Shown here in pieces: positions 1 to 14,990 of a stretch of 14,990 nt of DNA. Source of the DNA: a virus (Duplodnaviria; Heunggongvirae; Uroviricota; Caudoviricetes); IMG/VR virus record IMGVR_UViG_2660238423_000033, one strand, 5' to 3'. Numbering within the stretch: the stretch's first letter is position 1; each line of letters begins with the position of its first letter. Below the pieces are notes generated by a model. It saw only the letters and a program-made list of their open reading frames with translations. It was not told where the DNA came from and ran no database searches. Made by a program: the position numbers and the translations under genes.

Positions 1-156
1 ATGGCAAAGCCGATCATCACGCTCAATGGCCTAAAAATCGTCATTATGTTGGGAATGCTGGTCATTATTCTCTGCGGTATCCGTTTTGCCGCCGAGATCA
101 TCGTGCCGTTTATTCTCGCATTATTTATTGCTGTTATATATAACTTATTTCGCATA
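1..156 (+). pseudogene. tqsA: 5' fragment of an AI-2E family transporter gene (TqsA/YdgG-like), interrupted after about 45 codons
   Basis: Translation [45 protein letters not shown] is a hydrophobic membrane-protein N-terminus that I recognise from memory as TqsA-like. From about nt 136 the frame diverges into AT-rich sequence (YNLFRITH) and stops at 154-156. Not in the ORF track because it is under 60 aa. Confidence 0.45.
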
Positions 157-862
157 ACACATTGATTTAATTAAATAATTAACACCGCAAAAGTGCCAAA
201 AATCGCAAAATGACTACACCAGTGACTACACCGTTCGGTGCACTGTATGAAACAACGTGGAACAAATAGACACAAGAAATATACAGGCGGATCATCTTTC
301 CAGGGGGAAGCACACCAATTCATGAGGGGCGTTAATGTCGATATGGGGATCCCCACCTACCGGAATTTTTTTCCGGTTAAACGTTAATCAGGCTGGTGGG
401 CTTTACCTGTTCGGTAGGTGTTATGATTATCGTAATACCTTTCCCCCAATGGGGTAAAAGCATCAACCGTAACGAAAGTCGTTATGGTTGCCACTGATAC
501 CCCAAATTTGGGTATCACGAGTAAGCCCCAAAATCTGGGTGTTACTCTTACTACCCAAACTACGGGTAGTTTCCGTAGTTTCATGGTCGAGTTGCAGATC
601 TGCAACTCCCCCATTAACCACAGGCGAATTTCCGCCTTCGGTCATTCCTTAATCATCTGCGTAATCATAATGATTATTCAGCAAGCGCAATTTTGCGCTT
701 TGCTTAAAGTTCAGCGAGTTACCGCGCCGACTTCCTCAAATTGAGGTTTCCGAAAATATCAGCGGGTTAGCGATTAAGCTGACCATTAATTAAACTGCGA
801 AAATGTCGTAGTTGTGAGGGGTGTAGCCAACCCATTTTTGGGCCGTCGGGAATATCAACCAG

Positions 863-1144
863 TTACCGCCGCAACCGCTCCGGCTTCTTCCAGTGGTACG
901 TGATTTTCTCCTTCTCCCGATACAGTTCAACGCGGCGATTGTAGGCCAGCATTTCAAGAACGCGGATCCGTATGTCGCGCATATCCGCATCATTAAGCTG
1001 GATACCATCACGGCGCATCACCTCAGCAACAACACGCGCATAATTTTCGGCTGTCACGCTGTCCGGCTGCGTGGTCTGTTCGTCAGCCTGCTGGCTGATT
1101 CCAGAGACGCGGCGGATTAATCGCAGTATTTCGGCTTCTGTCAT
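863..1144 (-). CDS. hypothetical protein (93 aa), last gene of the packaging operon
   Basis: ATG at 1144 with GAGG about 9 nt upstream, directly after the terL stop (1158). No family recognised (MTEAEILRLIRRVSG...). Confidence 0.5.
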   Translation of the reverse strand: MTEAEILRLIRRVSGISQQADEQTTQPDSVTAENYARVVAEVMRRDGIQLNDADMRDIRIRVLEMLAYNRRVELYREKEKITYHWKKPERLRR

Positions 1145-1157
1145 GCTGCTGACCTCA

Positions 1158-2819
1158 TTACACCCCGCTAAATTCTTCCAGTTTCTGGCGGTGGCTGTCG
1201 CTTATATCAAAAGCAAAATCCTCATGCTCTGCCTGGAATGTACCAAACGCCATCAGCGCCGCTACGCTCGGGTCTATCTTGTTCGGTGATTTTTTCTTGT
1301 TCGGCTTGATATTGGCGTTCGCGTCACTCTGCATCACGACGTTACTCATCGACCAGGACAACACCGGATCGCCACGATGCACAATCACCCTGCGGTTAAC
1401 AAAAACTTCGAACGATTTCGCCGCCGGACTGAATCTGAGGTAGGTTTGCGGGAACGGCTCCACCTCAAAACCAGCCCCCTGTAATTGCGTCCTGAGATGC
1501 GTGGCGTTCCACGTATCAAAGCCCACCAGCCTGATATTAAATTTCTCCGCATCCTGCATGATGTCATCTCTGATCCGGTCGTAATCAATGCAGTCACCTG
1601 GCGTTGTGCGTATCCAGCCCGCTTTAGCCCACTGGCGATAGACAGCGCGGTTTTTATTGGCGGGGTTCTGTAGCTGGAACTCCGGCAGATAATGACGGGA
1701 AACCAGCATGATATTTTTACCGACCGGAAAGGCATAGCACACGCTGGAAATATCGCTGGTTGATGATAAGTCCAGCCCCGCGTAACACTCCTGCCCGTGT
1801 AAATCTTCCTCCGTGAACGTTCCGGCACACTCAGCCCATGCGCCGTTACCCATCCACGGGGTAGCCCCCTGGCACCAGATATTAAATCGCTTTGTCATCA
1901 TCTCCACCCACTGCGACGGAATACCCCGCGCTTTCTGGATGGTTGAGGCCAGTTTTTCACGATCGACGGAAACATCAATATTAGGGTTCGCCTTTATCCA
2001 CATCGCCGGATCATCAACCTCGTTTTCGTCGTCCAGCTCGTAAATCAGTACAAAAATTGAATCGTTAACCTCTTCGCCGTCCAGGATCTGGCAGCAATAA
2101 TCATAGTGCTGTTTACAGGCTGAAACGACGTTGCTGCCTGATGTGGTAATGGCAAATAACAGCCCTTCGGGACGTGCGCCCATCCCCAGCTCAAGCGCGG
2201 AATAAACGCCGTTATCGGGGTGCAAGTGGTATTCGTCCACGATGGAAAGGCTTGGGTTTGTTCCCTCGATGGTTGCCGCTTTTGCTGCCAGCGGCTTTAA
2301 CAGGCTGTTGCTTTTCGGGTGTATCACCTTATGCGCCTGAATATTCACCCGCCTGCGTAACGGTCGGGATAAAAGGCACATCTGACGCGCATCATCAAAG
2401 ACGATCCGCGCCTGGTCACGGCTCACCGCTGCGGTGTAGATATCCTGCTGACCGTTCTCCATAATCAGAAACCAGTTAGCCAGAATCGCGGCGGTCGTGG
2501 ATTTCGCATTTTTGCGCGGCACTTCGATAAAGGCGCTCGTGTATTTGCGCCGTCCGGTGGCCTTAACCTTAAAGCCGAGGATGCACGCAAAGGCGAACTG
2601 CTGCCACGGCTCCAGCTCAATGGGTCTGCCACGCATCGGTCCTTTTACGTGCGGGCACACCCTGGAAAAGGCAATAAACCGCTCCACAACCTCACGATCG
2701 AACGTGTAAAGGGGGCTTTTAAGGTCCGAAAAGTACCGTTTAACGGCCTGTTTCAGCCGTTTACAGGCCGGAATTTTGCCCGTTTTTACGTCTTCTGCGT
2801 ACTTATTCCAGGCGGTCAA
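1158..2819 (-). CDS. terL: terminase large subunit (ATPase/nuclease)
   Basis: 553 aa with a characteristic TerL N-terminus (WNKYAEDVKTGKIPACKRLKQAVKRYFSDL) and typical length. The start codon is TTG at 2819 with AGAGGA 6 nt upstream; it overlaps the terS 3' end by 17 nt. Confidence 0.9.
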   Translation of the reverse strand: MTAWNKYAEDVKTGKIPACKRLKQAVKRYFSDLKSPLYTFDREVVERFIAFSRVCPHVKGPMRGRPIELEPWQQFAFACILGFKVKATGRRKYTSAFIEVPRKNAKSTTAAILANWFLIMENGQQDIYTAAVSRDQARIVFDDARQMCLLSRPLRRRVNIQAHKVIHPKSNSLLKPLAAKAATIEGTNPSLSIVDEYHLHPDNGVYSALELGMGARPEGLLFAITTSGSNVVSACKQHYDYCCQILDGEEVNDSIFVLIYELDDENEVDDPAMWIKANPNIDVSVDREKLASTIQKARGIPSQWVEMMTKRFNIWCQGATPWMGNGAWAECAGTFTEEDLHGQECYAGLDLSSTSDISSVCYAFPVGKNIMLVSRHYLPEFQLQNPANKNRAVYRQWAKAGWIRTTPGDCIDYDRIRDDIMQDAEKFNIRLVGFDTWNATHLRTQLQGAGFEVEPFPQTYLRFSPAAKSFEVFVNRRVIVHRGDPVLSWSMSNVVMQSDANANIKPNKKKSPNKIDPSVAALMAFGTFQAEHEDFAFDISDSHRQKLEEFSGV

Positions 2820-3159
2820 GCTCGTCCTCTTCTTCTGTTTCCGGTGGGTTTTTACGGCGGCTTATCGGGTCAAAACCGAGCAAGGAGGCCATTTTTATCA
2901 TCACCCTTTCAGCGTCTGATTTCGCGCTTAATGCGGGGTTTCTGCTCTCGCCGCCCTGACTGTTAACAATGCTGAACCCGCGCGCCGCAAGGTCTGCGAC
3001 GGCTTTCCGGTAAATGGAGTAGTTGACACAATACAGTTCCAGATTGCTCCAGTCGGCGGGGGTCAGGTCTCCCCGTTCCGCAAGCTGCCGCGATTTTTCC
3101 CGCCACTGCTTCACGGCGATGTCATCCAGGTAGGCGGGGGCTTTCGGTGGTCTTGCCAT
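2803..3159 (-). CDS. terS: terminase small subunit, P27 family
   Basis: 118 aa; MARPPKAPAYLDDIAVKQWREKSRQLAERGDLTPADWSNLELYCVNYSIYRKAV resembles P27-family TerS. Sits immediately upstream of terL. Confidence 0.8.
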   Translation of the reverse strand: MARPPKAPAYLDDIAVKQWREKSRQLAERGDLTPADWSNLELYCVNYSIYRKAVADLAARGFSIVNSQGGESRNPALSAKSDAERVMIKMASLLGFDPISRRKNPPETEEEDELDRLE

Positions 3160-3447
3160 GCTTATTTTTCGTCAGATTATTTTTCAAAAAATTCCCGTGC
3201 ATAAAAATTTGAGGAGGCGTTCGGTGCCCGGCGGGGTCGGGTTTGTCCTGAAAACGCCCCCCACCCCGTCATACAGCCTCATCAGCGATTGCGGAAACAT
3301 TCCATAACCTCGCGGTCACGGTCGGTTAATCGCTTCGCTGTGATGCGTTCTGCGCGTCCTGACGCTTTATCTTTATGCCCTGTTTCCTGTGTCTTCCATG
3401 CGTCACGCTGCCTTATAAGTCCACGGATAAGGCGGTTTTGTTCCCGC
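3160..3447. other. non-coding HNH-terS intergenic region, candidate cos (cohesive end) site
   Basis: 288 bp without a credible ORF between the HNH endonuclease and terS, containing a GC-rich tract (ggtgcccggcggggtcggg ... cgccccccaccccg). In HK97-like cos phages the cos site lies between the HNH gene and terS. Inferred, not demonstrated. Confidence 0.3.
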
Positions 3448-3888
3448 TCATTCATCAGCGTCATACATCCAGTTATTGCGGTTAGCGGCCCGTTCTTCCT
3501 CTTCATGAAATCCACCTGCGGCACGCTTGCTTTTTGTTGCCGGATCAAGCCATTTCGTTTTCTGGTTATGACACGCCTGGCACAATGGTTGATGGTTCCA
3601 TTCGGGCCAGAAGAGAACATCATCACCGCCATTAATCGGGATAATGTGATCCACCACCACGGCGGGCGTATATATCCCCTTCTCAAGGCATCGCACGCAT
3701 AACGGGTTTTTACTCAGATACATGGCGCGGTATTTGTCCCACTGTCTGGAGTACCCACGCGCGCGGCGGTGTCCTCGTCTGGCATCCTCTGCACGCCATG
3801 CCGCCCGCCTGTGCTCCTCACACTTGCCGGACTTCACGCGCCTGTTACAGCCTGGTTCTGTGCATCGTCTTAATGGTTGCCACGGCAT
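3448..3888 (-). CDS. HNH endonuclease (packaging-associated)
   Basis: 146 aa; Cys-rich N-terminus (CTEPGCNRRVKSGKCEEH) and an HNH core (VVDHIIPINGGDDVLFWPEWNHQPLCQACHNQKT). ATG at 3888 overlaps the connector stop by 1 nt. Confidence 0.85.
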   Translation of the reverse strand: MPWQPLRRCTEPGCNRRVKSGKCEEHRRAAWRAEDARRGHRRARGYSRQWDKYRAMYLSKNPLCVRCLEKGIYTPAVVVDHIIPINGGDDVLFWPEWNHQPLCQACHNQKTKWLDPATKSKRAAGGFHEEEERAANRNNWMYDADE

Positions 3889-4184
3889 CAGTACACCCCC
3901 ACATCACGGTAAGCCGTCCAGAGCGCGCCTATCGTCATGGGTACGCGCGTTTTTGCGTTATCCGCTACCAGCTGGCGATTCTCGTACAGGTGAGCGATAA
4001 ACATCATGCAGCCAATCTTTATGGCTGGCGTGAACTCCAGCCCGTCATCAAAGCGCCTGCCTATATGTATCTGGCACGCCTCAAGCGATGCGGCAATGTA
4101 TCCGCTGATTAACTGGTCTTCCTCGTCGCCATCGATGCGGCAATGGAGTTTCACTTCTTCCAGGGTGATAAGTTCTTCTGTCAT
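3888..4184 (-). CDS. gp6-like head-tail connector protein
   Basis: 98 aa; MTEELITLEEVKLHCRIDGDEEDQLISGYIAASLEACQIHIGRRF matches the gp6-like connector pattern. Start overlaps the upstream stop (ATGA). Confidence 0.7.
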   Translation of the reverse strand: MTEELITLEEVKLHCRIDGDEEDQLISGYIAASLEACQIHIGRRFDDGLEFTPAIKIGCMMFIAHLYENRQLVADNAKTRVPMTIGALWTAYRDVGVY

Positions 4185-4519
4185 TTTTCCGCGCCCTCAC
4201 GACAAAGAATTTCAAGGCGTGTCCTGGCGGCATCCGGCAGCGGCTGCCCGATGATATTCAGTACACGCCCCGCCAGCGGCCCCGTACTGACCTTTATCCG
4301 GCTGGTGGCGTTGATGTCCTTCCGGTACCGTATCCAGATCCTTACGGTACCAATCGCCAGCTCTGCACCCGATGAAATGGCCTCCTTGCTGCTGATCATG
4401 TTCACGCTTGCCCAGAGTGTGTGACCGTCCTCCCACGTTTCGAGTATTTCGCCGGTTATATCCCTGGTCTGTTTCAGGGTCTGAATCGTTACCCTGTCAC
4501 GCAGTCGCCCTATGTTCAT
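4181..4519 (-). CDS. head closure / head-tail joining protein (likely start at 4519; ORF track extends to 4561)
   Basis: MNIGRLRDRVTIQTLKQTRDITGEILETWEDGHTLWASV...VRIWIRYRKDIN fits the phage head-tail joining family. The ATG at 4519 overlaps the portal stop (ATGA) and has GAGGGAG upstream. Confidence 0.65.
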   Translation of the reverse strand: MNIGRLRDRVTIQTLKQTRDITGEILETWEDGHTLWASVNMISSKEAISSGAELAIGTVRIWIRYRKDINATSRIKVSTGPLAGRVLNIIGQPLPDAARTRLEILCREGAEK

Positions 4520-5727
4520 TCCGGTTTTTCTCCCTCGCTGATTTTTACTTCCTGTTTCCATGCCTGGCTGAACTCATCACCACCATCACGCGGGGACAGC
4601 CCTTCACGTTCGCGGGCTTCGTTCGGGCACATAACGCCGGATTTGATGCCGCGTTCATAGGTGGCAAAGCGTTCGCCAGGTGTGGCCCGTAACAGGTCCG
4701 CGCTGTCAAACTCCACCTGATACCGGATACCAGGTACAGGCGAGGCCACCAGCAGGGCGTTTTTTATCTGCTGCTCAAAGTTCGCCAGCCACGGGCGCAT
4801 CGTCATAGTGAGAAATGCGCGGCTTGCCTCGCTGAAATTGCTGTAGGTGCTGTTGCTGTATTCCTGCAAAAAAATCGGCGAGACGTTGAACATTCGGGCG
4901 ATGTCTTCAATGGTGAAGCGACGGGAGGCCAGCCATTCAGCATCCTGATTACTCATGCCCAGCTGCTGATAGCTCATACCCCCTTCAAGGATGGGCGTTT
5001 TTCCGGCGTTTCTGGCCCCTTTGTAGCGTTCCAGTGCGGCTAATGCCTGTTTGCCTTTCACGCCGTCCAGCCATTCGCCTGACGTGATAACCCCTGCCGC
5101 CATCATGCCATCACGCATCACGCTCGCGCCGTGGCGTTGTTGGGCCAGCCCAAGCCCCAGCGATTCGCGGCAGATGGTTACAGGTGAGCGCCCCATAAAA
5201 CCGTCATCCGTGGAGTAACGAAGGTGGAGAACCTCCCACGGTAAATAGTTGCGGGTGTTTCCGGTGTAGGCGTCAGTGATGCAGTAGCGCCAGTTGTGTT
5301 CGCCTGTCTGCTCCACGTTCACCGACTGCGGCGGGTAAGGATGTAAAGCCACCGGAAAACCATCACGCCCCCACTGAATCACCGCATAAGCATTACCGTT
5401 TAACAGGCAGTGGCGGATCATCATTCGCTTAAACTGGTAGGGAGTCTGCCACGCGTTCGGGCGCTCGTTGAGGATGTGATCGACCGGATGAGAATCAAGC
5501 CACTCTCGGGCCTCCTTCCCCTTCTCATTGCGTACCAGGTACAGGTAACACGGCATGGTAGCCACCGCCTCAGAGATGACCGTGACGGCGTTCATGACGG
5601 CGGGCAGTGATTCCGCTGTCCCCGATGATACGTACTCACCCGACCCCGTGTTCGATGTGCCGGCCAGCGCCATAAATTCATCCAGCGTCATGCTGCGCTG
5701 CTCTTTTTTTCTTCTGAAAGGCCACAT
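4516..5727 (-). CDS. portal protein, HK97 family
   Basis: 403 aa; N-terminal region (SLPAVMNAVTVISEAVATMPCYLY) and length are typical of HK97-family portals. ATG at 5727 is preceded by GGGGGTG. Confidence 0.9.
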   Translation of the reverse strand: MWPFRRKKEQRSMTLDEFMALAGTSNTGSGEYVSSGTAESLPAVMNAVTVISEAVATMPCYLYLVRNEKGKEAREWLDSHPVDHILNERPNAWQTPYQFKRMMIRHCLLNGNAYAVIQWGRDGFPVALHPYPPQSVNVEQTGEHNWRYCITDAYTGNTRNYLPWEVLHLRYSTDDGFMGRSPVTICRESLGLGLAQQRHGASVMRDGMMAAGVITSGEWLDGVKGKQALAALERYKGARNAGKTPILEGGMSYQQLGMSNQDAEWLASRRFTIEDIARMFNVSPIFLQEYSNSTYSNFSEASRAFLTMTMRPWLANFEQQIKNALLVASPVPGIRYQVEFDSADLLRATPGERFATYERGIKSGVMCPNEAREREGLSPRDGGDEFSQAWKQEVKISEGEKPE

Positions 5728-5728
5728 A

Positions 5729-6301
5729 TCACACCCCCGCTAAATCCGCCCACCAGCGGCGATTATCCGCACGCGGCATTTTTTCGGGGTGCTGCTCATA
5801 CAGGGAACGGCGGGCCAGCTCCACGCCGGAATCAGGGTAAGCCGGTACGGATGTAACGGTAATTTCGTACAGTTCCGCCACCAGCACGGTGCGCACGCAT
5901 GGATCTGTTGTGGTATCCCATACATCCTTACGGGAACGAAAGCCAAAGCTCATGCCGGATATATCACCACGTTTAACCAGTTCGATAACGTCACGCCCTG
6001 TGCTGGTATCCGGTGGGGTAAGTTCAAAGCGTAACCCTGTGTCGTCCTCTTCCAGTTTCAGCGTGCCGGAACGGGTGCGCCCCAGTAACATGCTGTGGTC
6101 ATGCTCATACAGGCCGCGAACGTCATTACCCGCCGCAAGCCACTCAGTAAACGCCCCCCGCTGGAATTTTTCGTAAAACTCCCCCCATAGCAGTTCTGAA
6201 AGCTTATCCCAGCGAACAACGTAGCCCGTCAGCGTACCGGCTCCGCTGGTGGTGATTTCCGATGACCGGATTTCCATACTCTTCATAATTTTTTCACCCA
6301 T
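5729..6301 (-). CDS. prohead maturation protease, HK97 family (true start probably the ATG at 6286)
   Basis: Motifs GYVVRWDKLS, GAFTEWL, LYEHD, LLGRT, DDTGLRFEL and GDISGMSFGFR resemble the HK97 prohead protease family. The first ATG (6301) has no Shine-Dalgarno; the ATG at 6286 has GGTGA 7 nt upstream. Confidence 0.85.
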   Translation of the reverse strand: MGEKIMKSMEIRSSEITTSGAGTLTGYVVRWDKLSELLWGEFYEKFQRGAFTEWLAAGNDVRGLYEHDHSMLLGRTRSGTLKLEEDDTGLRFELTPPDTSTGRDVIELVKRGDISGMSFGFRSRKDVWDTTTDPCVRTVLVAELYEITVTSVPAYPDSGVELARRSLYEQHPEKMPRADNRRWWADLAGV

Positions 6302-6310
6302 AAAACACTA

Positions 6311-6330
6311 AAGGGGCTTTTAAGCCCCTT
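6311..6330 (-). terminator. perfect palindrome between the capsid and protease genes (possible attenuator)
   Basis: aaggggctt-tt-aagcccctt, 9 bp arms, followed on the minus strand by a T-rich stretch (tagtgtttt). Placement after the major capsid gene would favour high capsid stoichiometry. Confidence 0.3.
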
Positions 6331-6340
6331 CTGTATGCTG

Positions 6341-7498
6341 TTAATCGTCGTCCTGTGGCAGTTCCAGAATCTTGATCGCGTTCGAATCCACCACGCCACC
6401 GCCTAAATATTTCTGCGTGAAAATTTTGATGAAGCCCGGCTCTGTGAGGTTGTCCGGTCTGGTGCGAACACCTGTTTCGTGATCAACAATGTAGTAACCG
6501 CGTTTGAAGTCACCCAGGGCAATAACGTTATCAGGCATAAACTCCAGATATTCGACCGGAAGGCCCAGCAACGTATCAGGATCACCCGCCTGTAAACGGT
6601 CGCGCCAGATGTAATCACCGTTCGCGTTCTTCACCTTCTGAAGTTTTGCCGCCGTCGTGGAGTTAACCACCCAGACCGCGTTTTTGCGGTATTTTTTACG
6701 TAATGCAAATTTCAGGTCGATCAGCGGGTCCGCAGATGTCCACGCCAGAGATTCGGAAGGTTTAATTACCTGCAACGTACCAAAATCACGCTCTTTGTCG
6801 TTCTTCTCTGCACGGGGTACGGATAAAAAACCTTTTGCTTTTTTGTCACCGTCGCCCACAACCAGATCGCTTTCTTCGGTTTCCGTGAAGGTGTCGCCAA
6901 TCTCACCCGTCAGCCATGAAAGGATGTCCACATCGGAAAAATCCACGATTTCCTGTGTGGTGCGCGGGTACGCATAGACCGGATACAGCTTAATGCTCAC
7001 CTCGTTAATCTGCGGGGTGCTGGTCTGTTCGCGTGCCTTACCCTCTTCACCGTGGTTAACGGTCGCACCGCCAGCGGAAACAAGCTGCTTAAACTCGTTG
7101 CTGCTGATTTTCTTCACGGTACAGATGCGGCGCATGGTGGATTCATCCGCCAGCATTCGCATGATTTCGGTGTTCAGCTCGGGGATAACGGTATAACCAC
7201 CATCAGCGGGAACGCCTGTACTTAATGCGCGGGTTTCACCTGTCAGGATGTAGTTGCGTAGTTCTGCGGGGTCAGTGGTCTGACTGCTTTTACCTGGCTT
7301 GCTGCGCTCTTCGTCTGCAATGGCTTCAAGGCGGGAAATGTCTTTATCGAGGGATTCAGCTTTAGTGCGTAATTCGTCAAATTTTGCGCCCTCAGCATCG
7401 TTAAGACTGCGGTTTTCTTTTTCCGCGTTCTCCAGCATGTCGCGCATCTGATTTTTAATGGCGGTTTTCTGCTGGCGTAATTCGATTATTCTCGGCAT
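6341..7498 (-). CDS. major capsid protein, HK97 fold, with N-terminal coiled-coil (delta/scaffold-like) region
   Basis: 385 aa; N-terminal about 90 residues are charged and heptad-like (IIELRQQKTAIKNQMRDMLENAEKENRSL...ISRLEAIADEE), as in HK97 delta domains. Position next to the protease and portal supports the call. ATG at 7498. Confidence 0.8.
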   Translation of the reverse strand: MPRIIELRQQKTAIKNQMRDMLENAEKENRSLNDAEGAKFDELRTKAESLDKDISRLEAIADEERSKPGKSSQTTDPAELRNYILTGETRALSTGVPADGGYTVIPELNTEIMRMLADESTMRRICTVKKISSNEFKQLVSAGGATVNHGEEGKAREQTSTPQINEVSIKLYPVYAYPRTTQEIVDFSDVDILSWLTGEIGDTFTETEESDLVVGDGDKKAKGFLSVPRAEKNDKERDFGTLQVIKPSESLAWTSADPLIDLKFALRKKYRKNAVWVVNSTTAAKLQKVKNANGDYIWRDRLQAGDPDTLLGLPVEYLEFMPDNVIALGDFKRGYYIVDHETGVRTRPDNLTEPGFIKIFTQKYLGGGVVDSNAIKILELPQDDD

Positions 7499-7534
7499 AA
7501 AAAAAGTCCTGGGGTTAAGTAAGGAACTCCAGGA
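7499..7534 (-). promoter_or_regulatory. stem-loop plus U6 abutting the capsid start codon; it contains the only Shine-Dalgarno candidate
   Basis: Minus-strand RNA gtcctggaguu-ccuuacuu-aaccccaggac-UUUUUU-AUG: an 11 bp stem with one mismatch and an 8 nt loop, then six U and the capsid ATG. The AGGA in the 3' arm is 7 nt from the ATG. Confidence 0.4.
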
Positions 7535-7708
7535 CGCGGCAAAAACTCAACCGTTTTTCATAAGGAAATCAGCAATCGCACCGATCGTTTTCCCGCCTGG
7601 TAATGAATATTGGCGAGAACATTAACAGGCGGAAAAGTGGCCCCAGCGTCCTGGCACCACGGGCGAGAATAATCATGATTCAGTTCGGGTAAAATATGCC
7701 GATCCGCT

Positions 7709-7738
7709 CAGTGAACAACGTGGAACAACCACGAACAA
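7709..7738 (+). repeat. three GAACAA hexamers phased at exactly 10 bp (candidate regulator binding array)
   Basis: cagtGAACAAcgtgGAACAAccacGAACAAataa, with hexamers at 7713, 7723 and 7733. The same architecture occurs at 246-275 and, on the other strand, at 13681-13730. Confidence 0.45.
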
Positions 7739-7754
7739 ATAATTTACAAAAAAT

Positions 7755-7780
7755 GACAAAAAGCCGGATTTCTCCGGCTG
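7755..7780 (-). terminator. rho-independent terminator after the 74 aa gene
   Basis: Minus-strand RNA gccgga-GAAA-uccggc followed by uuuuugucauuuuuu; lies 12 nt after the stop at 7790. Confidence 0.6.
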
Positions 7781-7789
7781 TATGGGTGC

Positions 7790-8013
7790 TCAGTCCCTGA
7801 TCCCTTTCAGAAATTCTATCAATGCATCTATCTGTTCAGGATTTACCGCCAGCATTTCACCGGATAGAGCACATCTCACAAAACCATGCTGATCCTTTTC
7901 AATCAGTGCGCCCGTCTCCAGGAATGCGCGGTAATCATTGATGCTCATCGTCTCCATGTTGTCAGCATGGTATTTATCACGCTGTTTTAATATCTCATCA
8001 AATTTCATCGGCA
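7790..8013 (-). CDS. hypothetical protein (74 aa from the ATG at 8013; ORF track extends to 8092)
   Basis: MPMKFDEILKQRDKYHADNMETMSINDYRAFLETGALIEK...; GAGGA lies 7 nt upstream of the ATG at 8013. Flanked by terminators on both sides, so it is a stand-alone transcription unit. No family recognised. Confidence 0.5.
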
Positions 8014-8107
8014 TTGTTTTTTCCTCTGTTGTGTCTGTTTGTTTCAGATAGTAACTATGCCTGACCGTGACGAAAACCCGGTAATGCACCATACCGTTTC
8101 AACTGGT

Positions 8108-8134
8108 GCAAAAAAAGCCGGATTTCTCCGGCTG
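8108..8134 (-). terminator. rho-independent terminator after the perC-like gene
   Basis: Same 24 nt sequence as the terminator at 7755-7780 (aaaaagccggatttctccggctgt on the plus strand); the minus-strand hairpin is followed by U7. Confidence 0.65.
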
Positions 8135-8138
8135 TTGA

Positions 8139-8411
8139 TTAGCTGTCTGGGTAATTACGCCATATTTCATCGCTTACACCATCTATACCCATTTCAGCAT
8201 AAGTGCGATCTACTGCCTTTCTCAGGTCTCTGAAGTTATCCGGCGGCTCCGGTGGCTTCTGTGCCTTCCTGGAACATTCCAGCCGTCGCATCGTAACCTG
8301 ATGCCGTTCCTTGTCTGTCTCCACCAGCAGCATGACTTCACCCCATCGCGCCGCCGCCCTCCGGTAAAAGCCTTTCGCCTCGAGTTCTTCCGCTATGCGG
8401 TCATGTACCAT
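8139..8411 (-). CDS. PerC-like transcriptional regulator (91 aa from the ATG at 8411)
   Basis: MVHDRIAEELEAKGFYRRAAARWGEVMLLVETD resembles the PerC family N-terminus as I remember it. GAGGGGG lies 5 nt upstream of the ATG at 8411; the longer track ORF would overlap ssb. Confidence 0.5.
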   Translation of the reverse strand: MVHDRIAEELEAKGFYRRAAARWGEVMLLVETDKERHQVTMRRLECSRKAQKPPEPPDNFRDLRKAVDRTYAEMGIDGVSDEIWRNYPDS

Positions 8412-8421
8412 CGCCACCCCC

Positions 8422-8832
8422 TCAGAACGGAATACCGTCACCGTAAGGGTCATCGCCTCCCGCTGGTGGCTGATTACCCTGTGTGCCTGTGGTTTTGCGT
8501 CTGTTCCCGCCAGGAAGTGCCGCACGGGCACTGATTACGCTGTCTGCAATAACCTGATAACCCTGCCGCGTTTCCCCATTCTGTCCGGTCCACTGGCTGA
8601 CCTGCATCGTGCCGGATACGCTGGCAACGTCGCCTTTTTGATGTTTAGCCAGGAAGTCGGCCTGCTTACCAAATGCGATGACCGATAGCCATAACGTCGC
8701 CTGCCCATCCTGCGCCTGACTACATGGCAGCGATACCGCCATACGCGCCAGCGTCATCGGTGTACCCTTGCTGGTCTGTTTTACCTGCGGGTCGTCCACC
8801 AGCCGCCCGTAAGCTGCTATCTGTGCTGTCAT
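8422..8832 (-). CDS. ssb: single-stranded DNA-binding protein (short, 136 aa)
   Basis: OB-fold core WLSVIAFGKQADFLAKHQKGDVASVSGTMQVSQWTGQNGETRQGYQVIADSV, a Gly/Pro/Gln-rich linker and the canonical acidic C-terminal tail ending DGIPF. GGAGAGGTGG precedes the ATG. Confidence 0.8.
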   Translation of the reverse strand: MTAQIAAYGRLVDDPQVKQTSKGTPMTLARMAVSLPCSQAQDGQATLWLSVIAFGKQADFLAKHQKGDVASVSGTMQVSQWTGQNGETRQGYQVIADSVISARAALPGGNRRKTTGTQGNQPPAGGDDPYGDGIPF

Positions 8833-9107
8833 GATTCCACCTCTCCGGTTTTAACGTTGATGGTTGTTACCTGTTCCGCTTCGGCAATCTCCCGCTCTGT
8901 CAGCGTGGCAAAATTTGCCGCCGTCGTGGTCATGAATGCGCTTATCAGTTCGGGATGTGCTTTCGCGTATCCTTCCCCCGCGTGGCGGTCTATCGTTCTG
9001 ATTGCCACCTTTAAAGCGTGCTCTGTCATGTCTAACGCGCGATATTTCGGTTCTGTTCTGTCTCTGCGTTTTTTGAGTGATTTATTAAATTTCCCTGAAG
9101 TGTGCAT
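8829..9107 (-). CDS. hypothetical protein (92 aa), first gene downstream of the origin
   Basis: ATG at 9107 with GAGGGGG upstream; its stop overlaps the ssb start (ATGA). No family recognised. Confidence 0.45.
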   Translation of the reverse strand: MHTSGKFNKSLKKRRDRTEPKYRALDMTEHALKVAIRTIDRHAGEGYAKAHPELISAFMTTTAANFATLTEREIAEAEQVTTINVKTGEVES

Positions 9108-9149
9108 ATTTATTTTTACCCCCTCGTTTAAAAAGTTTTGAGTTGTGCC

Positions 9150-9385
9150 TCCCCTTGTCTACCTTATCTACCTTAGTGGCCCTCATACCAGTAATGGCGC
9201 GGCTTTCAGCTGGGTAGAGTGCTTTTATCCACTATCTACCCCGTGTCTACCTCCCTGTCTGATTCAGGTAAAATCAGGTAGAGAGGGTAGATAGTGGGTA
9301 GACAGTAAAAAAAGGCTATCTACCTAACTTAATGCACTGAATTAAATGTATTTTTCTTTACTCAGGTAGACAGGGTAGACAGCAA
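9150..9385. repeat. replication origin: iteron array (GGTAGACA and variants, both orientations) around an AT-rich core
   Basis: At least 11 copies of GGTAGA(C/T/G)A or its complement TGTCTACC/TATCTACC (for example 9156, 9166, 9233, 9244, 9278, 9287, 9298, 9317, 9366, 9375), with an AT-rich stretch at 9330-9360. Begins 14 bp after the pri-rep stop. Confidence 0.65.
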
Positions 9386-9395
9386 TTACAAAAAA

Positions 9396-11150
9396 TTATA
9401 AAAACGCGTCGCACTCGTCTGTTGTTATTGCGTTAGTCTGCGTTACTCCCTTAACTTTCCGCGTAATATATTCATGTCCGTAAACTTTCGCGGCTGGCTT
9501 CATAGCCTTGCCAAAGTCATTTACGTTTAGCGGTTTGCTCCTGCCTGCGTACGCCATAAACGCCAGATAGACGCGGTAAAGGCTGTTTCTGGTCGTGTAC
9601 TTCACTGAATCGCCACCGCCGCCCATCATCAGGCCGCGTGCTTCCTCCAGAAAATTCAGGAACTGGCAAAACTCAATAACCGGATCCGTCTGTTGCTTTA
9701 TTGCCAGAGCTTCATCACCGTCACGCTGTTCCAGTAGTAAAGCCCGTGCCTTCTCAGGGTCGGTAAAGTTCGCCAGCAATCGGCGGATAATGACAGGGAT
9801 TTCAGCCGCGATCTTTTCCGGTAGCTCCCTGTCTTTTTCGGCCTCACTGACGATATTGTCGAAACGGAAAATCACGCGACGACGTGCCACACCTCCGGCC
9901 CGTTCGGTGAATATCATCGGGTTATTGTTGGTCGCCAGCACCACCGCCCTGATTACAGCCGTGAAACGCTTTTCGTATTTCGGGTTAATTTCCACGGGGT
10001 CACCGCCCGTGATTTTCTTGATGCCCGTTCCTTCGCCTGTATATTTCGGCTGGTCAGCCAGGACGATAAGACGACTCCCGACAACCTGCGCACGTCCACC
10101 AGCATCATCAAGCGATGTCATTTCAGCGCTTACCGTGTTCTGTTTCCCTGCCAGAAGGCTGGCTATGTGCGTGAATGTACTTTTACCGCTCCCGCCGTCT
10201 CCGGTGGCCTCAATAAACATCTGCCAGTCGTACCGGTTCGCCATAATCATGTACAGCGCGGCACATATACGCATCATCTTGCGCGGGTCTTTTCCGGCTG
10301 CGTGCTCAAGCCATTTATGAAAGTTTGGCGCGTTATCGCGGATGTTCTCCCCTGGTGCTGGTGGCGTGTACTCAATGCCGTTGTGCGTGGTGATCCAGTT
10401 CTCCGGCGTGTGCGGGGAAAATTCCCCCGTTTTCAGGTCAAGCGCACCATTGGCGAACGGCAGCAAATCGCCGGACGGCTCGCCCATTGGTTCGGCAATA
10501 ACTTTTAACGCTTCCACGGCGTTATTGATTACGCGCTTGCTGAAAGTGGCCCTGTGCTCTGAATAGATCGCCACCATTTCGCGGCTAAGTTCCATTGTGC
10601 TGACCGGACACCATACCCCGCCGCGCCATACGTGAACGATTTCACTTTCAGGATGTACGCAAACGCCATCAAAGCGATCGGCAAGCAGCTGCGCGCGCTC
10701 ACTGTCCGCCATCTGCGAAAGTTGCGCCTTTTGCTTTACCGGAAGCTCAATGACCAGACCATCAGAAAGATTCTGGCGCTCACGAGCCAGATATTCGCGC
10801 CAGTTCTCCACCTTCTGACCGTGCATACCATCAGGGTAAAAATTTGCATCCTGTACGCCTGCCGCCGCCAGCTTCTGACCAATCGCCTTTATCATTACTG
10901 GCGCAAGATATCCGGCCCTGAATATGCGCACGGATTTTCTGCCTTCCGGCACAATTTGCAGCTTATCCAGTTCGGATAACTGCTGCTCCCCAAGCCACAC
11001 AGGAGGCTCATTATCTCCGGCCATACGCGCGTCATGTTCCTGCCATTGTTTTGCGTGTGACCAGGCATCACTACCCGCAAAAATAATGACTTCAGTTTCT
11101 TTGTGTTTTATGCCGCGTGACTGCTGTTTTACGTTCGGTGCCAGTTTCAT
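9396..11150 (-). CDS. primase/replication initiator (Pri-Rep), P4-alpha/D5-like with a Walker A NTPase
   Basis: 584 aa; Walker A motif ATGDGGSGKST mid-protein, with the N-terminal half consistent with a primase region. ATG at 11150 has AGGGG upstream and overlaps the upstream stop. Confidence 0.85.
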   Translation of the reverse strand: MKLAPNVKQQSRGIKHKETEVIIFAGSDAWSHAKQWQEHDARMAGDNEPPVWLGEQQLSELDKLQIVPEGRKSVRIFRAGYLAPVMIKAIGQKLAAAGVQDANFYPDGMHGQKVENWREYLARERQNLSDGLVIELPVKQKAQLSQMADSERAQLLADRFDGVCVHPESEIVHVWRGGVWCPVSTMELSREMVAIYSEHRATFSKRVINNAVEALKVIAEPMGEPSGDLLPFANGALDLKTGEFSPHTPENWITTHNGIEYTPPAPGENIRDNAPNFHKWLEHAAGKDPRKMMRICAALYMIMANRYDWQMFIEATGDGGSGKSTFTHIASLLAGKQNTVSAEMTSLDDAGGRAQVVGSRLIVLADQPKYTGEGTGIKKITGGDPVEINPKYEKRFTAVIRAVVLATNNNPMIFTERAGGVARRRVIFRFDNIVSEAEKDRELPEKIAAEIPVIIRRLLANFTDPEKARALLLEQRDGDEALAIKQQTDPVIEFCQFLNFLEEARGLMMGGGGDSVKYTTRNSLYRVYLAFMAYAGRSKPLNVNDFGKAMKPAAKVYGHEYITRKVKGVTQTNAITTDECDAFL

Positions 11151-11446
11151 TTTTTACCCCTGAATACGTTAAGCATCTTTTTTATTTCCTGAATATTGGC
11201 GCGTGCTTTCTTCCTGCTGGTTGGTTTACTGCGGGGCGCTGCCTGTACCAGAGAAAAATCACGCCGAAACTGATAAACAGGCATCACGCAATCATATTCG
11301 TAGCCTTCACGGCGGTAGGTTACGCGCCGTTCTTCCACGCCCTTAATCATTACCGTGCCGCCGTACTGGTCGCGGTAAATATCACCGCGCGTAAATTTAG
11401 GGTGAGTGTTGCCACTGGCAGTTAAGCCAGAATATTTAAGTTTCAT
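11147..11446 (-). CDS. hypothetical protein (99 aa), coupled to pri-rep
   Basis: ATG at 11446 with GGAG upstream; stop overlaps the pri-rep start (ATGA). Basic C-terminus. No family recognised. Confidence 0.5.
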   Translation of the reverse strand: MKLKYSGLTASGNTHPKFTRGDIYRDQYGGTVMIKGVEERRVTYRREGYEYDCVMPVYQFRRDFSLVQAAPRSKPTSRKKARANIQEIKKMLNVFRGKK

Positions 11447-11911: not shown

Positions 11912-12143
11912 AACCACCCCCATTTTCACAATCAGCAATCAGGATGGCTTTAGCCTCATTCAGCGCCATATCAGCACTAAGTTGCATAACCGCCAGCGAA
12001 TGAGGAACGAAAGCCCCGGCATATTCTGTTTCACTGGTGTCGTGCTTATGCGCCCTGTCAGCAATAACAGAAATATCAATCAGCGCATGCATTAGCGTTA
12101 TGATGGCTTCGGCGGCTGCGTCCGGACGGGTGTTATTGCACAT
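11904..12143 (-). CDS. hypothetical protein (79 aa)
   Basis: Strong AGGAGGT 6 nt upstream of the ATG at 12143. No family recognised. Confidence 0.55.
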   Translation of the reverse strand: MCNNTRPDAAAEAIITLMHALIDISVIADRAHKHDTSETEYAGAFVPHSLAVMQLSADMALNEAKAILIADCENGGGYA

Positions 12144-12339
12144 GGCACACCTCCTGACGAATACGGGCAGCGAATACCATCACGCAGCCAGCCGGAGATT
12201 GCTGGCGTGCTTCCTGTTCGCTGGTGGCCTCAATGGTAATCACGCGCGGTTGTGCCGTGCTCAGGGCGATAAAACGCCAGATGTATTTATTCAGGTTGTG
12301 CGAGTCCCGCCCTTGCGGGTGTATGGTATGATTTCTCAT
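12133..12339 (-). CDS. hypothetical protein (68 aa), first gene of the leftward operon
   Basis: Internal ATG at 12339 of the 339-codon track ORF, with GAGG 5 nt upstream. Only this C-terminal part has a ribosome-binding site; the remainder of the long ORF is rejected. Confidence 0.4.
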   Translation of the reverse strand: MRNHTIHPQGRDSHNLNKYIWRFIALSTAQPRVITIEATSEQEARQQSPAGCVMVFAARIRQEVCHVQ

Positions 12340-12529
12340 AGCTACCTCGATACTTTCGCTATCGTTGGTGGTTAGACGCCCTGCATGTGTGCCACCACTG
12401 CGGGGCGTTGTTGTTTGGTGCATCGCACCATTCGTTTTTAACCTATCAGTAAGTGAATCGCACTTCAAGTCTTTCTCTGAAATTTTTTTTGTGTATACTG
12501 AATCGCACCAACTTAGAGAGGATTCAGTA
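12340..12529. promoter_or_regulatory. divergent promoter/operator region between the leftward operon and the plus-strand RHH gene
   Basis: Plus-strand candidate -10 TATACT at 12494-12499 with a TG just upstream. Direct repeats TGAATCGCAC at 12454-12463 and 12499-12508, plus a related CATCGCACC at 12421-12429. Confidence 0.4.
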
Positions 12530-12709
12530 ATGGCAACAGGTTCAACAAATAATAAGTCGCAACAGTTAAATGCCAGATTCCCGCATGATGTTGTTGCAGA
12601 CTTAGAAAAAAATTTAGATGAAGGTGAAAGCAAGGCGCAATTTATAGTTACTGCCGTTAAAGGTGAGATCAAACGCCGCCAGCGTCGCAAGGCCAAAGAG
12701 CAGGAGTAA
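12530..12709 (+). CDS. ribbon-helix-helix (Arc/Mnt-like) DNA-binding protein, 59 aa
   Basis: QQLNARFPHDVVADLEKNLDEGESKAQFIVTAVKGEIKRR aligns by eye with the Arc repressor strand-helix-helix (QFNLRWPREVLDLVRKVAEENGRSVNSEIYQRVMESF). GAGAGGA precedes the ATG at 12530. Confidence 0.5.
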   Translation: MATGSTNNKSQQLNARFPHDVVADLEKNLDEGESKAQFIVTAVKGEIKRRQRRKAKEQE

Positions 12710-12766
12710 CCATCACCAGCGCCGTGGTGTGAGTAACTACGGCGCATTGCTATGCAGGACAACACA

Positions 12767-12940
12767 ATGACCGATAAAGAATTGACCAAAACATTATCAC
12801 CGGCACGGAAAAGACGGCGCAGAAAGATAGAACATGAATCAGAAAGATTCGCGCCATGTGCTTTTGCCCTTGAGCAATTCCTTAAAGAGTACAGGGAAAA
12901 GCGCTCATTGCAGGTATGGCAACGAACTGAACCAGACTGA
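12767..12940 (+). CDS. hypothetical small basic protein (57 aa from the ATG at 12767)
   Basis: MTDKELTKTLSPARKRRRRKIEHESERFAPCAFALEQFLKEY; AGGA 7 nt upstream. Co-oriented with the RHH gene and upstream of the plus-strand terminator. Weak call. Confidence 0.3.
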   Translation: MTDKELTKTLSPARKRRRRKIEHESERFAPCAFALEQFLKEYREKRSLQVWQRTEPD

Positions 12941-13035
12941 TTGCATTGCCCACCAGCCTGATAGCGGCTATCATCCCCGTGCTTATGTTTGGGATCACAC
13001 ACACAAACGGCGCAGCGGGTTATCTGTTCAGAAAG

Positions 13036-13063
13036 GCGGCTCCATTTCGGGGCCGCTTTTTTT
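13036..13063 (+). terminator. rho-independent terminator ending the plus-strand cassette
   Basis: gcggctcc-atttc-ggggccgc, an 8 bp stem with one G-U pair, followed by T7 (13057-13063). Confidence 0.6.
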
Positions 13064-13209
13064 ATGCCTGAAAAACCCCAATTTTGTGGTTTTCCAGTCT
13101 CACCAGGGCGAACGAATCCCCGCCCACGTTCTGGCGTATATTCAATCTTCATGGTTATAGCTCTGTGTTCAGATGATTGATGTGTGGCGGCTGTGTGCCG
13201 CCAGCGTGA

Positions 13210-13398
13210 TTAATGAACTGCCTTGCAGCTATCCTTCCAGGCCAGAACCTCGGATAAAGACCAGCCAACGGAACGACCGCCAAGTTTACGACGTGATGGG
13301 AATTGTCCGGCCTTTTCCAGGCGGTAGCGGCATGAGCGGCTAAGGCCTGTTAGCTTTTCGCATTCTTTTTCACGTATAAACCGATCAGTGCTTAACAC
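13210..13398 (-). CDS. alpA: AlpA-family transcriptional regulator / excisionase-like protein
   Basis: 62 aa; EKECEKLTGLSRSCRYRLEKAGQFPSRRKLGGRSVGWSLSEVLAW matches the AlpA family. The start is GTG at 13398 with AGGGGG 6 nt upstream. A hairpin without a U-tract (tggcggc-tgtgt-gccgcca, 13185-13203) lies 7 nt downstream. Confidence 0.85.
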   Translation of the reverse strand: MLSTDRFIREKECEKLTGLSRSCRYRLEKAGQFPSRRKLGGRSVGWSLSEVLAWKDSCKAVH

Positions 13399-13772: not shown

Positions 13773-14990
13773 TTATTTTCTTCTGGCTACTGGTAGCGTG
13801 GTTACGTTTTCATGTGTTCCCGCCAGTATCCCTAACCGCTCCGTCCACATATCCAGCGCATTGCGTTTAGCATCCAGATAACGGGAATGATTATAAACTC
13901 GCTGCATTCCTGGCATCTGATGACCTGTAAGCTGCTCCACGACATGCGGATCAACGCCTAAATCGTTCAGCATGGTTGTAAAGGTGCGCCGGATGTCATG
14001 CAGTGACCAGTGAGGATGATTAAGCCTCCTGTGCGCTAATCTTCCATACTGCGATACGCTGGCCTCCTGTTTCGCTTCCCCCAGCAATAAGCCCGTGTGC
14101 CTGTTCTGCTCCACCAGCTGCGTGACGAACGGCAGGATCGCTTCCGGTATGGGCCGGAATATTGCGACCTTCGTTTTGCTGTGCTCCTTCGGAACGGTCC
14201 ATAGCATTTCCGTAAAATCCCACTCCCCGATCTCCGATAGCCTCAGTTCTACCGTCCTGGCTCCGAAGACAATCAGGAGGCGGATTAACGCGACGTAGTA
14301 AGGGGAAAATATTTTTTTGTCCAGTGCCTGCAATAATTCGCCAAGTTCTTTGTTACTTAAGACACGTTCGCTTATATCCGGTTTTTTCCCAACGTCCGCC
14401 ACGTTCAGATCGTCCAGAACGTTGCTGATTGCATAGCGCCGCCTACGGCAGAACTTAAGCGCCTGTTTGCACGCCTGTAGCACGAATCCGGCAGTAACAG
14501 GCGTTCGCTTTGCCACCTGGTCAAAACAGGCCAGCCAGTGCCGTAGCTCGCATTTATCCAGCGGCATAGCACCAATCTGCTGTATTACGTGATTATTAAG
14601 TCGCCTTTTCAGGGCGATATAATCCACGCGGTTTTCCTTTACGTAATACTCAAGCCAGTAGGTGAGCGCATCGCCAACCGTTACGGGCTTTAACGCTTCC
14701 TGTACGGTGTAATTCATCTCATGACGTGGATTTTTCCCCTCAGCCAGCCATGTGCGACACTGTGCGGCTTTTTCCCTGGCTGCTTTCAGGCTCAGATCAG
14801 GATAACTTCCCAGCTTAATGCGTTCGGGTCGTGTCTCCCTTCCCGTTCCGGCCCTGTATGTGAAATACCAGGTCAATTTCCCTGATGTTAAATATTTCAC
14901 GCTCAGGTTTCCGCCATCACTATAAAACGTGTTTTTCTCCGCTGGCTTACCATGAAGTTTCCTTAGCAAGGTATCGCTCAGTTTGTTCAT
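13773..14990 (-). CDS. int: tyrosine site-specific integrase, P4 family
   Basis: 405 aa; N-terminal arm-binding domain (FYSDGGNLSVKYLTSGKLTWYFTYRAGTGRETRPERIKLGSYPDLSLKAAREKA) and a C-terminal catalytic region (HDIRRTFTT, LTGHQMPGMQRVYNHSRY carrying the catalytic Tyr). The ATG is the last three bases of the window. Confidence 0.95.
   Translation of the reverse strand: MNKLSDTLLRKLHGKPAEKNTFYSDGGNLSVKYLTSGKLTWYFTYRAGTGRETRPERIKLGSYPDLSLKAAREKAAQCRTWLAEGKNPRHEMNYTVQEALKPVTVGDALTYWLEYYVKENRVDYIALKRRLNNHVIQQIGAMPLDKCELRHWLACFDQVAKRTPVTAGFVLQACKQALKFCRRRRYAISNVLDDLNVADVGKKPDISERVLSNKELGELLQALDKKIFSPYYVALIRLLIVFGARTVELRLSEIGEWDFTEMLWTVPKEHSKTKVAIFRPIPEAILPFVTQLVEQNRHTGLLLGEAKQEASVSQYGRLAHRRLNHPHWSLHDIRRTFTTMLNDLGVDPHVVEQLTGHQMPGMQRVYNHSRYLDAKRNALDMWTERLGILAGTHENVTTLPVARRK

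Follow-up and report, generated by a model that had tools for sequence, protein, structure and literature searches.

The window, by which we mean the whole 14,990-nt stretch of DNA that was analyzed (IMG/VR record IMGVR_UViG_2660238423_000033), begins with the 5′ end of an Escherichia coli gene and runs through most of a mobile element into its integrase gene. The element's protein families were recognized by Pfam, and the genes described here all lie on the minus strand. A capsid and packaging module at 863–7498 comprises a 93-aa ORF, TerL, TerS, HNH, a head-tail connector, a head completion protein, the portal, an S78 prohead protease, and the major capsid protein. The Pfam-identified ORFs of this module are all intact; TerS is a member of Terminase_4, and two head-tail connector proteins are recognized by Pfam. 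The TerL gene (1158–2819) is an intact 553-aa ORF in the window, and its counterpart in strain 20.1, a close relative described below, is annotated as frameshifted (L003, 4159–5819). A second group of genes at 8139–11446 encodes a PerC-family regulator, an SSB, a 92-aa ORF, a primase-replicase with the Pfam domains D5_N, DUF5906, and Pox_D5, and a DUF4222 protein. They are followed by an AlpA-family regulator at 13210–13398 (Phage_AlpA, E = 5e-18) and by a P4-type tyrosine integrase at 13773–14990, which combines the Arm-DNA-bind_3 and Phage_integrase domains and is transcribed into the element. The start codon assigned to the integrase by PGAP lies 12 nt beyond the end of the window. By inspection, the motifs ARTVELR (from residue 244), HDIRRT (331), GHQM (356), and RVYNH (364) appear to supply the R...HxxR...H...Y catalytic residues of tyrosine recombinases.

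Two of the accessory genes merit brief comment. The PerC-family transcriptional activator (8139–8531) is a strong match (Pfam E = 3e-44), and in EPEC and EHEC the LEE virulence island is under the control of PerC homologues. An E. coli PICI has also been linked to LEE repression (PMC11773190). At 12133–13152 lies a 339-aa ORF, the last ~90 residues of which match a PHROG annotated as transcriptional repressor (Icd-like according to PGAP), while its first ~250 residues match neither a Pfam nor a PHROGs family. The same region of the closest relative contains short Icd-like genes, a YlcI/YnfO gene on the opposite strand, and a pseudogene, and it constitutes the island's variable part.

The element thus combines an integrase gene at one end, alpA, and a primase-replicase with a capsid and packaging set of its own, over ~15 kb that carry no tail or lysis genes: no such families were found among the Pfam and PHROGs matches or in the PGAP annotation of relatives, where small ORFs of no assigned function remain. 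Its gene order agrees with that of its relatives. Judged by this gene content, the element is a capsid-forming PICI (cf-PICI). Over the packaging module (851–9083) it is 97.4% identical in DNA, and 97–100% identical in protein sequence, to an element of O157:H7 strain OK1, which fits the published description of EcCIEDL933 and which we used as the comparison sequence for that island; the AlpA proteins of the two are 98.4% identical.

The tqsA fragment at the left end

Nucleotides 1–137 of the window are 100% identical to the 5′ end of tqsA from E. coli K-12, as well as from thousands of further genomes (E = 5e-64); the gene is annotated in K-12 as "tqsA: AI-2 transporter TqsA". A scripted direct comparison showed that the prefix shared by the two sequences is exactly 137 nt long, that is, 45 codons plus 2 nt of the plus-strand gene. 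When nucleotides 1–600 were used as a megablast query, 5423 of the 5426 complete E. coli genomes gave a match, and in element-free genomes such as K-12 it stops at nt 137. The reading frame continues into the element as a chimeric, ATG-started ORF of 54 codons (1–165, plus strand, stop at 163–165), which consists of 46 native TqsA residues followed by eight element-encoded ones (YNLFRITH). Codon 46 changes from ATT to ATA, so residue 46 is still Ile. In relatives, PGAP annotates this remnant as a partial pseudogene "missing C-terminus". The G+C content is 39% in the first 300 nt, compared to 50–58% across most of the element.

A first-pass annotation, made from the letters of the window, had described this end as a TqsA-like N-terminus truncated after about 45 codons, running into AT-rich sequence and a stop, and had proposed an insertion into a protein-coding gene rather than at a tRNA. 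The comparison with genomes agrees on each count and sharpens the first, as the 137-nt identity shows the gene to be tqsA itself. The two halves of tqsA flank the element in three carrier genomes (L001, L003, and L006), and Rfam searches gave no match, neither for the whole window at gathering thresholds nor for nt 1–900 at E ≤ 1; there is therefore no tRNA-like or known RNA target at the junction. The annotation had also named the finding that would reduce the break to allelic divergence, namely an intact transporter gene continuing with the window's own sequence. This was looked for past nt 137 and found in none of the 5426 complete genomes. A scan of nt 1–1000 for promoter and terminator consensus sequences performed no better than on shuffled sequence.

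Attachment core and right junction

The closest complete genome is that of strain 20.1 (L003), which is 99.3% identical over 98% of the length of the window and encodes an integrase with zero amino-acid differences from the window's; strain FORC_069 (L001) is 97.8% identical. The order of the locus in L001, L003, and L006 is mdtJ, 5′ tqsA fragment, element, integrase, 3′ tqsA fragment, and pntB, with the 3′ fragment annotated as "missing N-terminus". In these close relatives, a 9-bp sequence, TGCTGTTAT, recurs ~190 bp beyond the start of the integrase gene and is followed by the remainder of tqsA. The junctions read ...cattatttatTGCTGTTATtcttaacccgctg for attB (K-12), ...cattatttatTGCTGTTATatataacttattt for attL (the window, L001, L003, and L006), and ...aaatgataaaaTGCTGTTATtcttaacccgctg for attR (the three relatives). 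The only block common to attB, attL, attR, and the attP described below (L007) is TGCTGTTAT, and as the block of shared identity it must contain the crossover. Its attL copy occupies positions 129–137 of the window.

The first-pass annotation had placed the att core near 130–160 and the far end of the element outside the window, and it had suggested locating a direct repeat by alignment to an island-free allele, with the lack of a repeat at the other end counting against it. Carried out by way of the relatives, the alignment narrows the core to 129–137 and finds the repeat at the far end, where the attR core of L003 begins 188 nt past the equivalent of position 14990. Judging from relatives that are 99.3% identical to it, the window should therefore have its right junction beyond its end, ~188 nt past 14990, with the predicted sequence ...AATGATAAAA TGCTGTTAT TCTTAACCCGCTGGTG... 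followed by codons 46–344 of tqsA.

Joining the left side of attL to the right side of attR across one core yields an open tqsA gene of 1035 nt (344 codons) in all three genomes, and the rebuilt protein differs from that of K-12 by no residue in L003 and L006 and by a single one in L001. Since an intact tqsA is rebuilt, the insertion was conservative and exact. The same junction is used by three different elements of 15.06, 15.72, and 11.75 kb; that of L003 measures 15,059 bp between the cores.

attP and the arm repeats

The attP of such an element is predicted to consist of the P arm, one core, and the P′ arm, and a part of this arrangement, GATAAAATGCTGTTATATATAAC, was used as a scan pattern. 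It was found once in the metagenome collection, on the 11,271-bp contig CYGL01000683.1 (L007). In order, this contig carries the 5′ end of int, two copies of GTGACTACACC, the core (8764–8772), ATGACTACACC and GTGACTACACC, and the opposite end of the element; it has a single core and no tqsA on either side. It matches L003 up to and including the final base of the core, and the window from the core's first base (nt 129) onward. The left end of the element (138–418), which directly follows the core in L007 (8764–9061, equivalent to 129–418 of the window), is thus the P′ arm of attP. The contig corresponds to the 11.7-kb element of strain W24 in circularly permuted order. It derives from a related 11-kb PICI with ~97% DNA identity in the int region, and not from the cf-PICI studied here. 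We take L007 to be the excised or replicating form of that related island. A tandem double insertion would create the same internal junction and is a less likely source; whichever its origin, the contig demonstrates that the core is part of the element and is the place of recombination. The exact attP pattern had no match in IMG/VR viral contigs, nor did a reconstructed attP of 467 nt match GenBank phage records.

The repeats next to the core in L007 are present in the window as a tandem pair, ATGACTACACC at 210–220 and GTGACTACACC at 222–232 (plus strand), and exact copies are confined to the ends of the element. L003 contains exactly four copies of the 11-mer RTGACTACACC, always on the same strand, with two in tandem ~73 nt inside attL and two between int and attR (L003, 18037–18059). 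When one mismatch is allowed, there are five matches compared to 0.36 expected.

The O157:H7 element offers a natural comparison. It measures 15.46 kb (L004, 17473–32941) and adjoins phoQ, with a core, AAATATGTCC, located just after the phoQ stop codon. The left-end region is 90% conserved between the two (window 156–492). Their integrases are 91% identical, and the 36 substitutions are unevenly distributed, with 21 in the arm-binding domain (residues 1–95), nine in the central region, and six in the catalytic half. All four repeat copies are likewise changed, to TTAACTACACC or TTGACTACACC. The two reconstructed attPs align almost base for base, apart from a ~30-bp block that begins with the core and from the initial 2–3 bases of each arm repeat. 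Because the repeats and the arm-binding domain change jointly between the lineages, we call the repeats arm-type integrase sites; they are candidate binding sites for the N-terminal domain of the integrase, and this covariation suggests that the arm domain binds them. The tqsA-type and phoQ-type pairs of integrase and attP would then represent a natural specificity swap, involving 36 amino-acid changes, a ~30-bp core block, and 2–3 nt in each arm repeat.

Non-coding features inside the left end

Just inside the P′ arm lies a hairpin-dense, non-coding block (290–620) with folding z-scores of −7.35 for the plus and −7.27 for the minus strand and near-perfect palindromes at 495–517, 498–568, and 580–617. 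It has no Rfam match at E ≤ 1. A sub-segment (~491–613) occurs with 87–95% identity in 666 of the 5426 E. coli genomes, usually once in each, and the block may be a cis element that PICIs have in common, for example, a terminator cluster or a cos/packaging site. The 15-mer TCAGCGAGTTACCGC is present in three direct copies (711–725, 759–773, and 855–869) that are 80–100% identical and spaced 48 and 96 nt apart; they are located between these hairpins and the packaging operon's last gene.

The hairpin segment at 492–600 is also shared with a 10.8-kb circular record that was deposited as plasmid pZ1323HEC0475-3 (L008; NZ_CP148328.1, 1–10790). This record encodes an integrase, an AlpA-like HTH protein, an Icd-like protein, DUF4222, a primase, and a protease/capsid fusion, and it looks like an excised PICI-type satellite that has been assembled as a plasmid.

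Consequences for tqsA

At attR, a TGA and a TAA in the tqsA frame lie just upstream of the 3′ fragment with one AAT codon between, and the element supplies this fragment with neither a start codon nor a Shine-Dalgarno sequence. Given these in-frame stops, no replacement N-terminus comes from the element, and we rejected the idea that attP restores the N-terminus of tqsA. In the cryo-EM structure of TqsA (PDB 7NB6; PMC9475539), helix H1 (Thr7–Phe29) makes the main pentamer contact and H2 spans Ala31–Trp57. Cut after residue 46, the 3′ fragment is devoid of H1, half of H2, the promoter, and the start codon, while a GTG (codon 51) and an ATG (codon 54, Met54) are in frame shortly after the core. 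It is therefore very likely that the insertion inactivates tqsA, and carriers would be expected to behave like tqsA null mutants. Strains deleted for tqsA reportedly form more biofilm, are more motile, and contain more intracellular AI-2 (Herzberg 2006, cited in PMC9475539).

In L003, a 60-aa ORF annotated as "hypothetical protein" (18000–18182, plus strand) lies between the start of int and attR. It shares its frame with the 3′ fragment of tqsA, from which it is separated by TGA, TAA, and AAT, probably by coincidence.

Distribution

Among the 5426 complete E. coli genomes, nt 1–300 of tqsA are uninterrupted in 5169, the int-attR-tqsA junction is present in 247, the attL of the window's type in 208, and at least 80% of the window in 163. 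The occupied site is thus found in ~4–5% of these genomes (about 4.6%), the carriers of which include O26:H11 and livestock strains. The identical junction in strain W24 holds a different element, a PICI of the classical type and 11.75 kb in length, whose packaging genes are limited to TerS, a head decoration protein, and a capsid protein and whose integrase differs from the window's at 15 residues. The tqsA site has therefore been used repeatedly by a PICI family sharing this integrase. Across the three element variants the junctions are identical and the integrases lie within 0–15 residues of the window's, which amounts to recurrent insertion by a tight integrase clade. An integrase-based scan of one genome per species, a method that finds close relatives only, returned nothing but a Shigella flexneri copy of the phoQ-type element, and so gives no evidence of tqsA targeting outside E. 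coli.

A few anomalies in tqsA and its neighborhood were also encountered. Two genomes (NZ_CM151390.1 and NZ_CP014583.1) have other irregularities in tqsA that are unrelated to this att site: in one, nt 1–300 of the gene match in two pieces over 508 bp and tqsA is annotated twice, and the other matches only up to nt 119. In FORC_069, ~10 kb upstream of tqsA (L001, 1–9700), a Rac-like prophage with its integrase gene (intD) abuts a truncated ynfG annotated as "missing N-terminus", a second gene-splitting integration in the neighborhood of tqsA.

Discussion

We consider it highly probable that positions 1–160 of the window contain the attL junction of a cf-PICI, which its own P4-type tyrosine integrase inserted into codons 43–46 of tqsA. 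In the model that we propose, the 9-bp TGCTGTTAT of tqsA (attB) would recombine with its identical counterpart in the attP of the element, where two arm-type repeats (GTGACTACACC) in tandem would lie on either side of the core. The gene would be split by the insertion into a promoter-proximal fragment encoding the 54-aa remnant and, ~15 kb away past the integrase, a 3′ fragment with neither promoter nor start codon, so that tqsA would be inactivated and not restored; excision at the core would rebuild the gene exactly. The model draws on a two-domain integrase, a shared core across which the target is rebuilt (the window's own attR being placed from relatives), and an arm-flanked attP (in L007, from a related PICI). 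The sequences of the junctions, the core, the element's gene content, its frequency in the population, and, in the excised-form contig, attP were all read directly from the data. Excision presumably depends on a helper phage and AlpA, as it does in the PICIs that have been studied.

Many transposons leave 9-bp direct repeats around their inserts, and the repeat described here could in principle be a target-site duplication made by a transposase, just as the divergence past position 137 could reflect an allelic or degenerate form of tqsA. However, no transposase was found among the ORFs scanned against Pfam and PHROGs, and it is a tyrosine integrase that adjoins attR. The junction is identical in 200–250 genomes and three element types, the attP contig has a single core without any tqsA, and the sister element, with its near-identical arms, has a different core that matches its own target beside phoQ. 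As for an allelic form, an intact tqsA that carries on with the sequence of the window was found in none of the genomes. We regard both ideas as practically certain to be wrong and rejected them in light of the integrase, the identical junctions, and the single-core attP contig. It is only slightly less improbable that the occupied gene still works, with the 3′ fragment being expressed from a promoter of the element and translated from GTG51 or ATG54 into a truncated transporter. The two codons do lie in frame soon after the core, and in the islands of Mageeney et al. the Pfam score ratio attB/attLR is only ~1.27, meaning that most of the domain remains (PMC7192596). Against this stand the in-frame TGA and TAA upstream, the lack of a start or Shine-Dalgarno sequence supplied by the element, the loss of the main pentamer-contact helix together with half of H2, and the annotation of the 3′ fragment as a pseudogene by PGAP.

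The insertion by the integrase could also be more than an accident of target choice, and act in addition as a reversible switch of the kind termed regulated gene integrity (RGI). Carriage would silence AI-2 export, excision, either triggered by a helper and AlpA or spontaneous, would restore tqsA, and selection would maintain the coupling. Several features of the locus resemble such a system: a conserved coding region is disrupted, attP does not restore it, and insertions by the tight integrase clade recur at the same position, which different elements use. The halves of tqsA are undecayed in the three carriers, with 0–1 amino-acid changes, although recent insertion predicts this equally well. 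Mageeney et al. name tqsA, with its disrupted UPF0118 domain, as a candidate RGI gene (PMC7192596), and the reported phenotypes of a tqsA deletion also speak for a switch. On the other hand, only ~4.6% of genomes are occupied, and Bobay et al. read poorly populated sites as secondary ones (PMC3603311). Moreover, PICI excision normally precedes lysis by the helper phage, which leaves a restored gene little time to matter. We therefore think it unlikely that the split of tqsA has a regulatory meaning. Were it to have one, satellite activity would be linked to AI-2 signaling, with the integrated state resembling a tqsA deletion.

The element class and the target have both been described before. 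The cf-PICI family was described by Alqurainy et al. (bioRxiv 10.1101/2022.09.08.507074), with mention of six E. coli attB sites; induction by a helper phage via AlpA and the formation of the island's own small capsids, used with helper tails, are known experimentally for EcCIEDL933 only (same reference). Like EcCIEDL933, the element in the window is ~15 kb long and has int, alpA, a primase, and a full capsid/packaging module but no tail genes. It differs from the O157:H7 (EcCIEDL933-type) element in its attachment core (TGCTGTTAT inside tqsA rather than AAATATGTCC after the phoQ stop), its arm repeats (GTGACTACACC rather than TTAACTACACC), its primase (D5_N/DUF5906 rather than DUF927), and its integrase, which is only 91% identical and has 21 of its 36 substitutions in the arm-binding domain. 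With the classical E. coli PICIs (the EcCICFT073 family; Fillol-Salom et al. 2018, PMC6092414), in which excision requires int and the helper phage induces AlpA as an activator, it shares the int-alpA-primase backbone. The classical islands have no portal, protease, or TerL and rely on helper capsids, whereas the element in the window encodes its own.

The integrase also has parallels outside the PICIs, since the combination of Arm-DNA-bind_3 with a tyrosine recombinase catalytic domain, and of the integrase with a small AlpA/Vis-type regulator, is found in P4 and CP4-57-type elements. Integrases of the P4 type usually insert at the 3′ end of a tRNA gene, which the insertion restores; the one described here instead goes into the 5′ portion of a protein-coding gene, which is left unrestored. 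In Bobay et al. 2013, tqsA appears in a list of conserved E. coli genes that prophages disrupt when they integrate (PMC3603311), and in Mageeney et al. 2020 the islands Eco282.16.tqsA, Eco557.15.tqsA, and Eco33.11.tqsA disrupt the UPF0118 domain (PMC7192596). We liken our element to these TIGER islands by site and size, as they too are integrative elements of E. coli, 11–16 kb long, that disrupt tqsA without restoring it, and their sizes agree with the 15–16-kb cf-PICIs and the 11.7-kb classical PICI at tqsA. The parts of these two papers that concern tqsA (PMC7192596 and PMC3603311) list the site and describe neither the core and attP nor the PICI or cf-PICI nature of the islands. Because the site, its inactivation by integrating elements, and the element family have all been published, our analysis adds little as a discovery. 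What it does provide is the left boundary of the island, fixed to the base, together with its type (cf-PICI) and its target. In the carriers, which make up ~4–5% of the complete E. coli genomes, the AI-2 exporter gene is split; this could affect biofilm and quorum-sensing phenotypes and is relevant when strains are compared.
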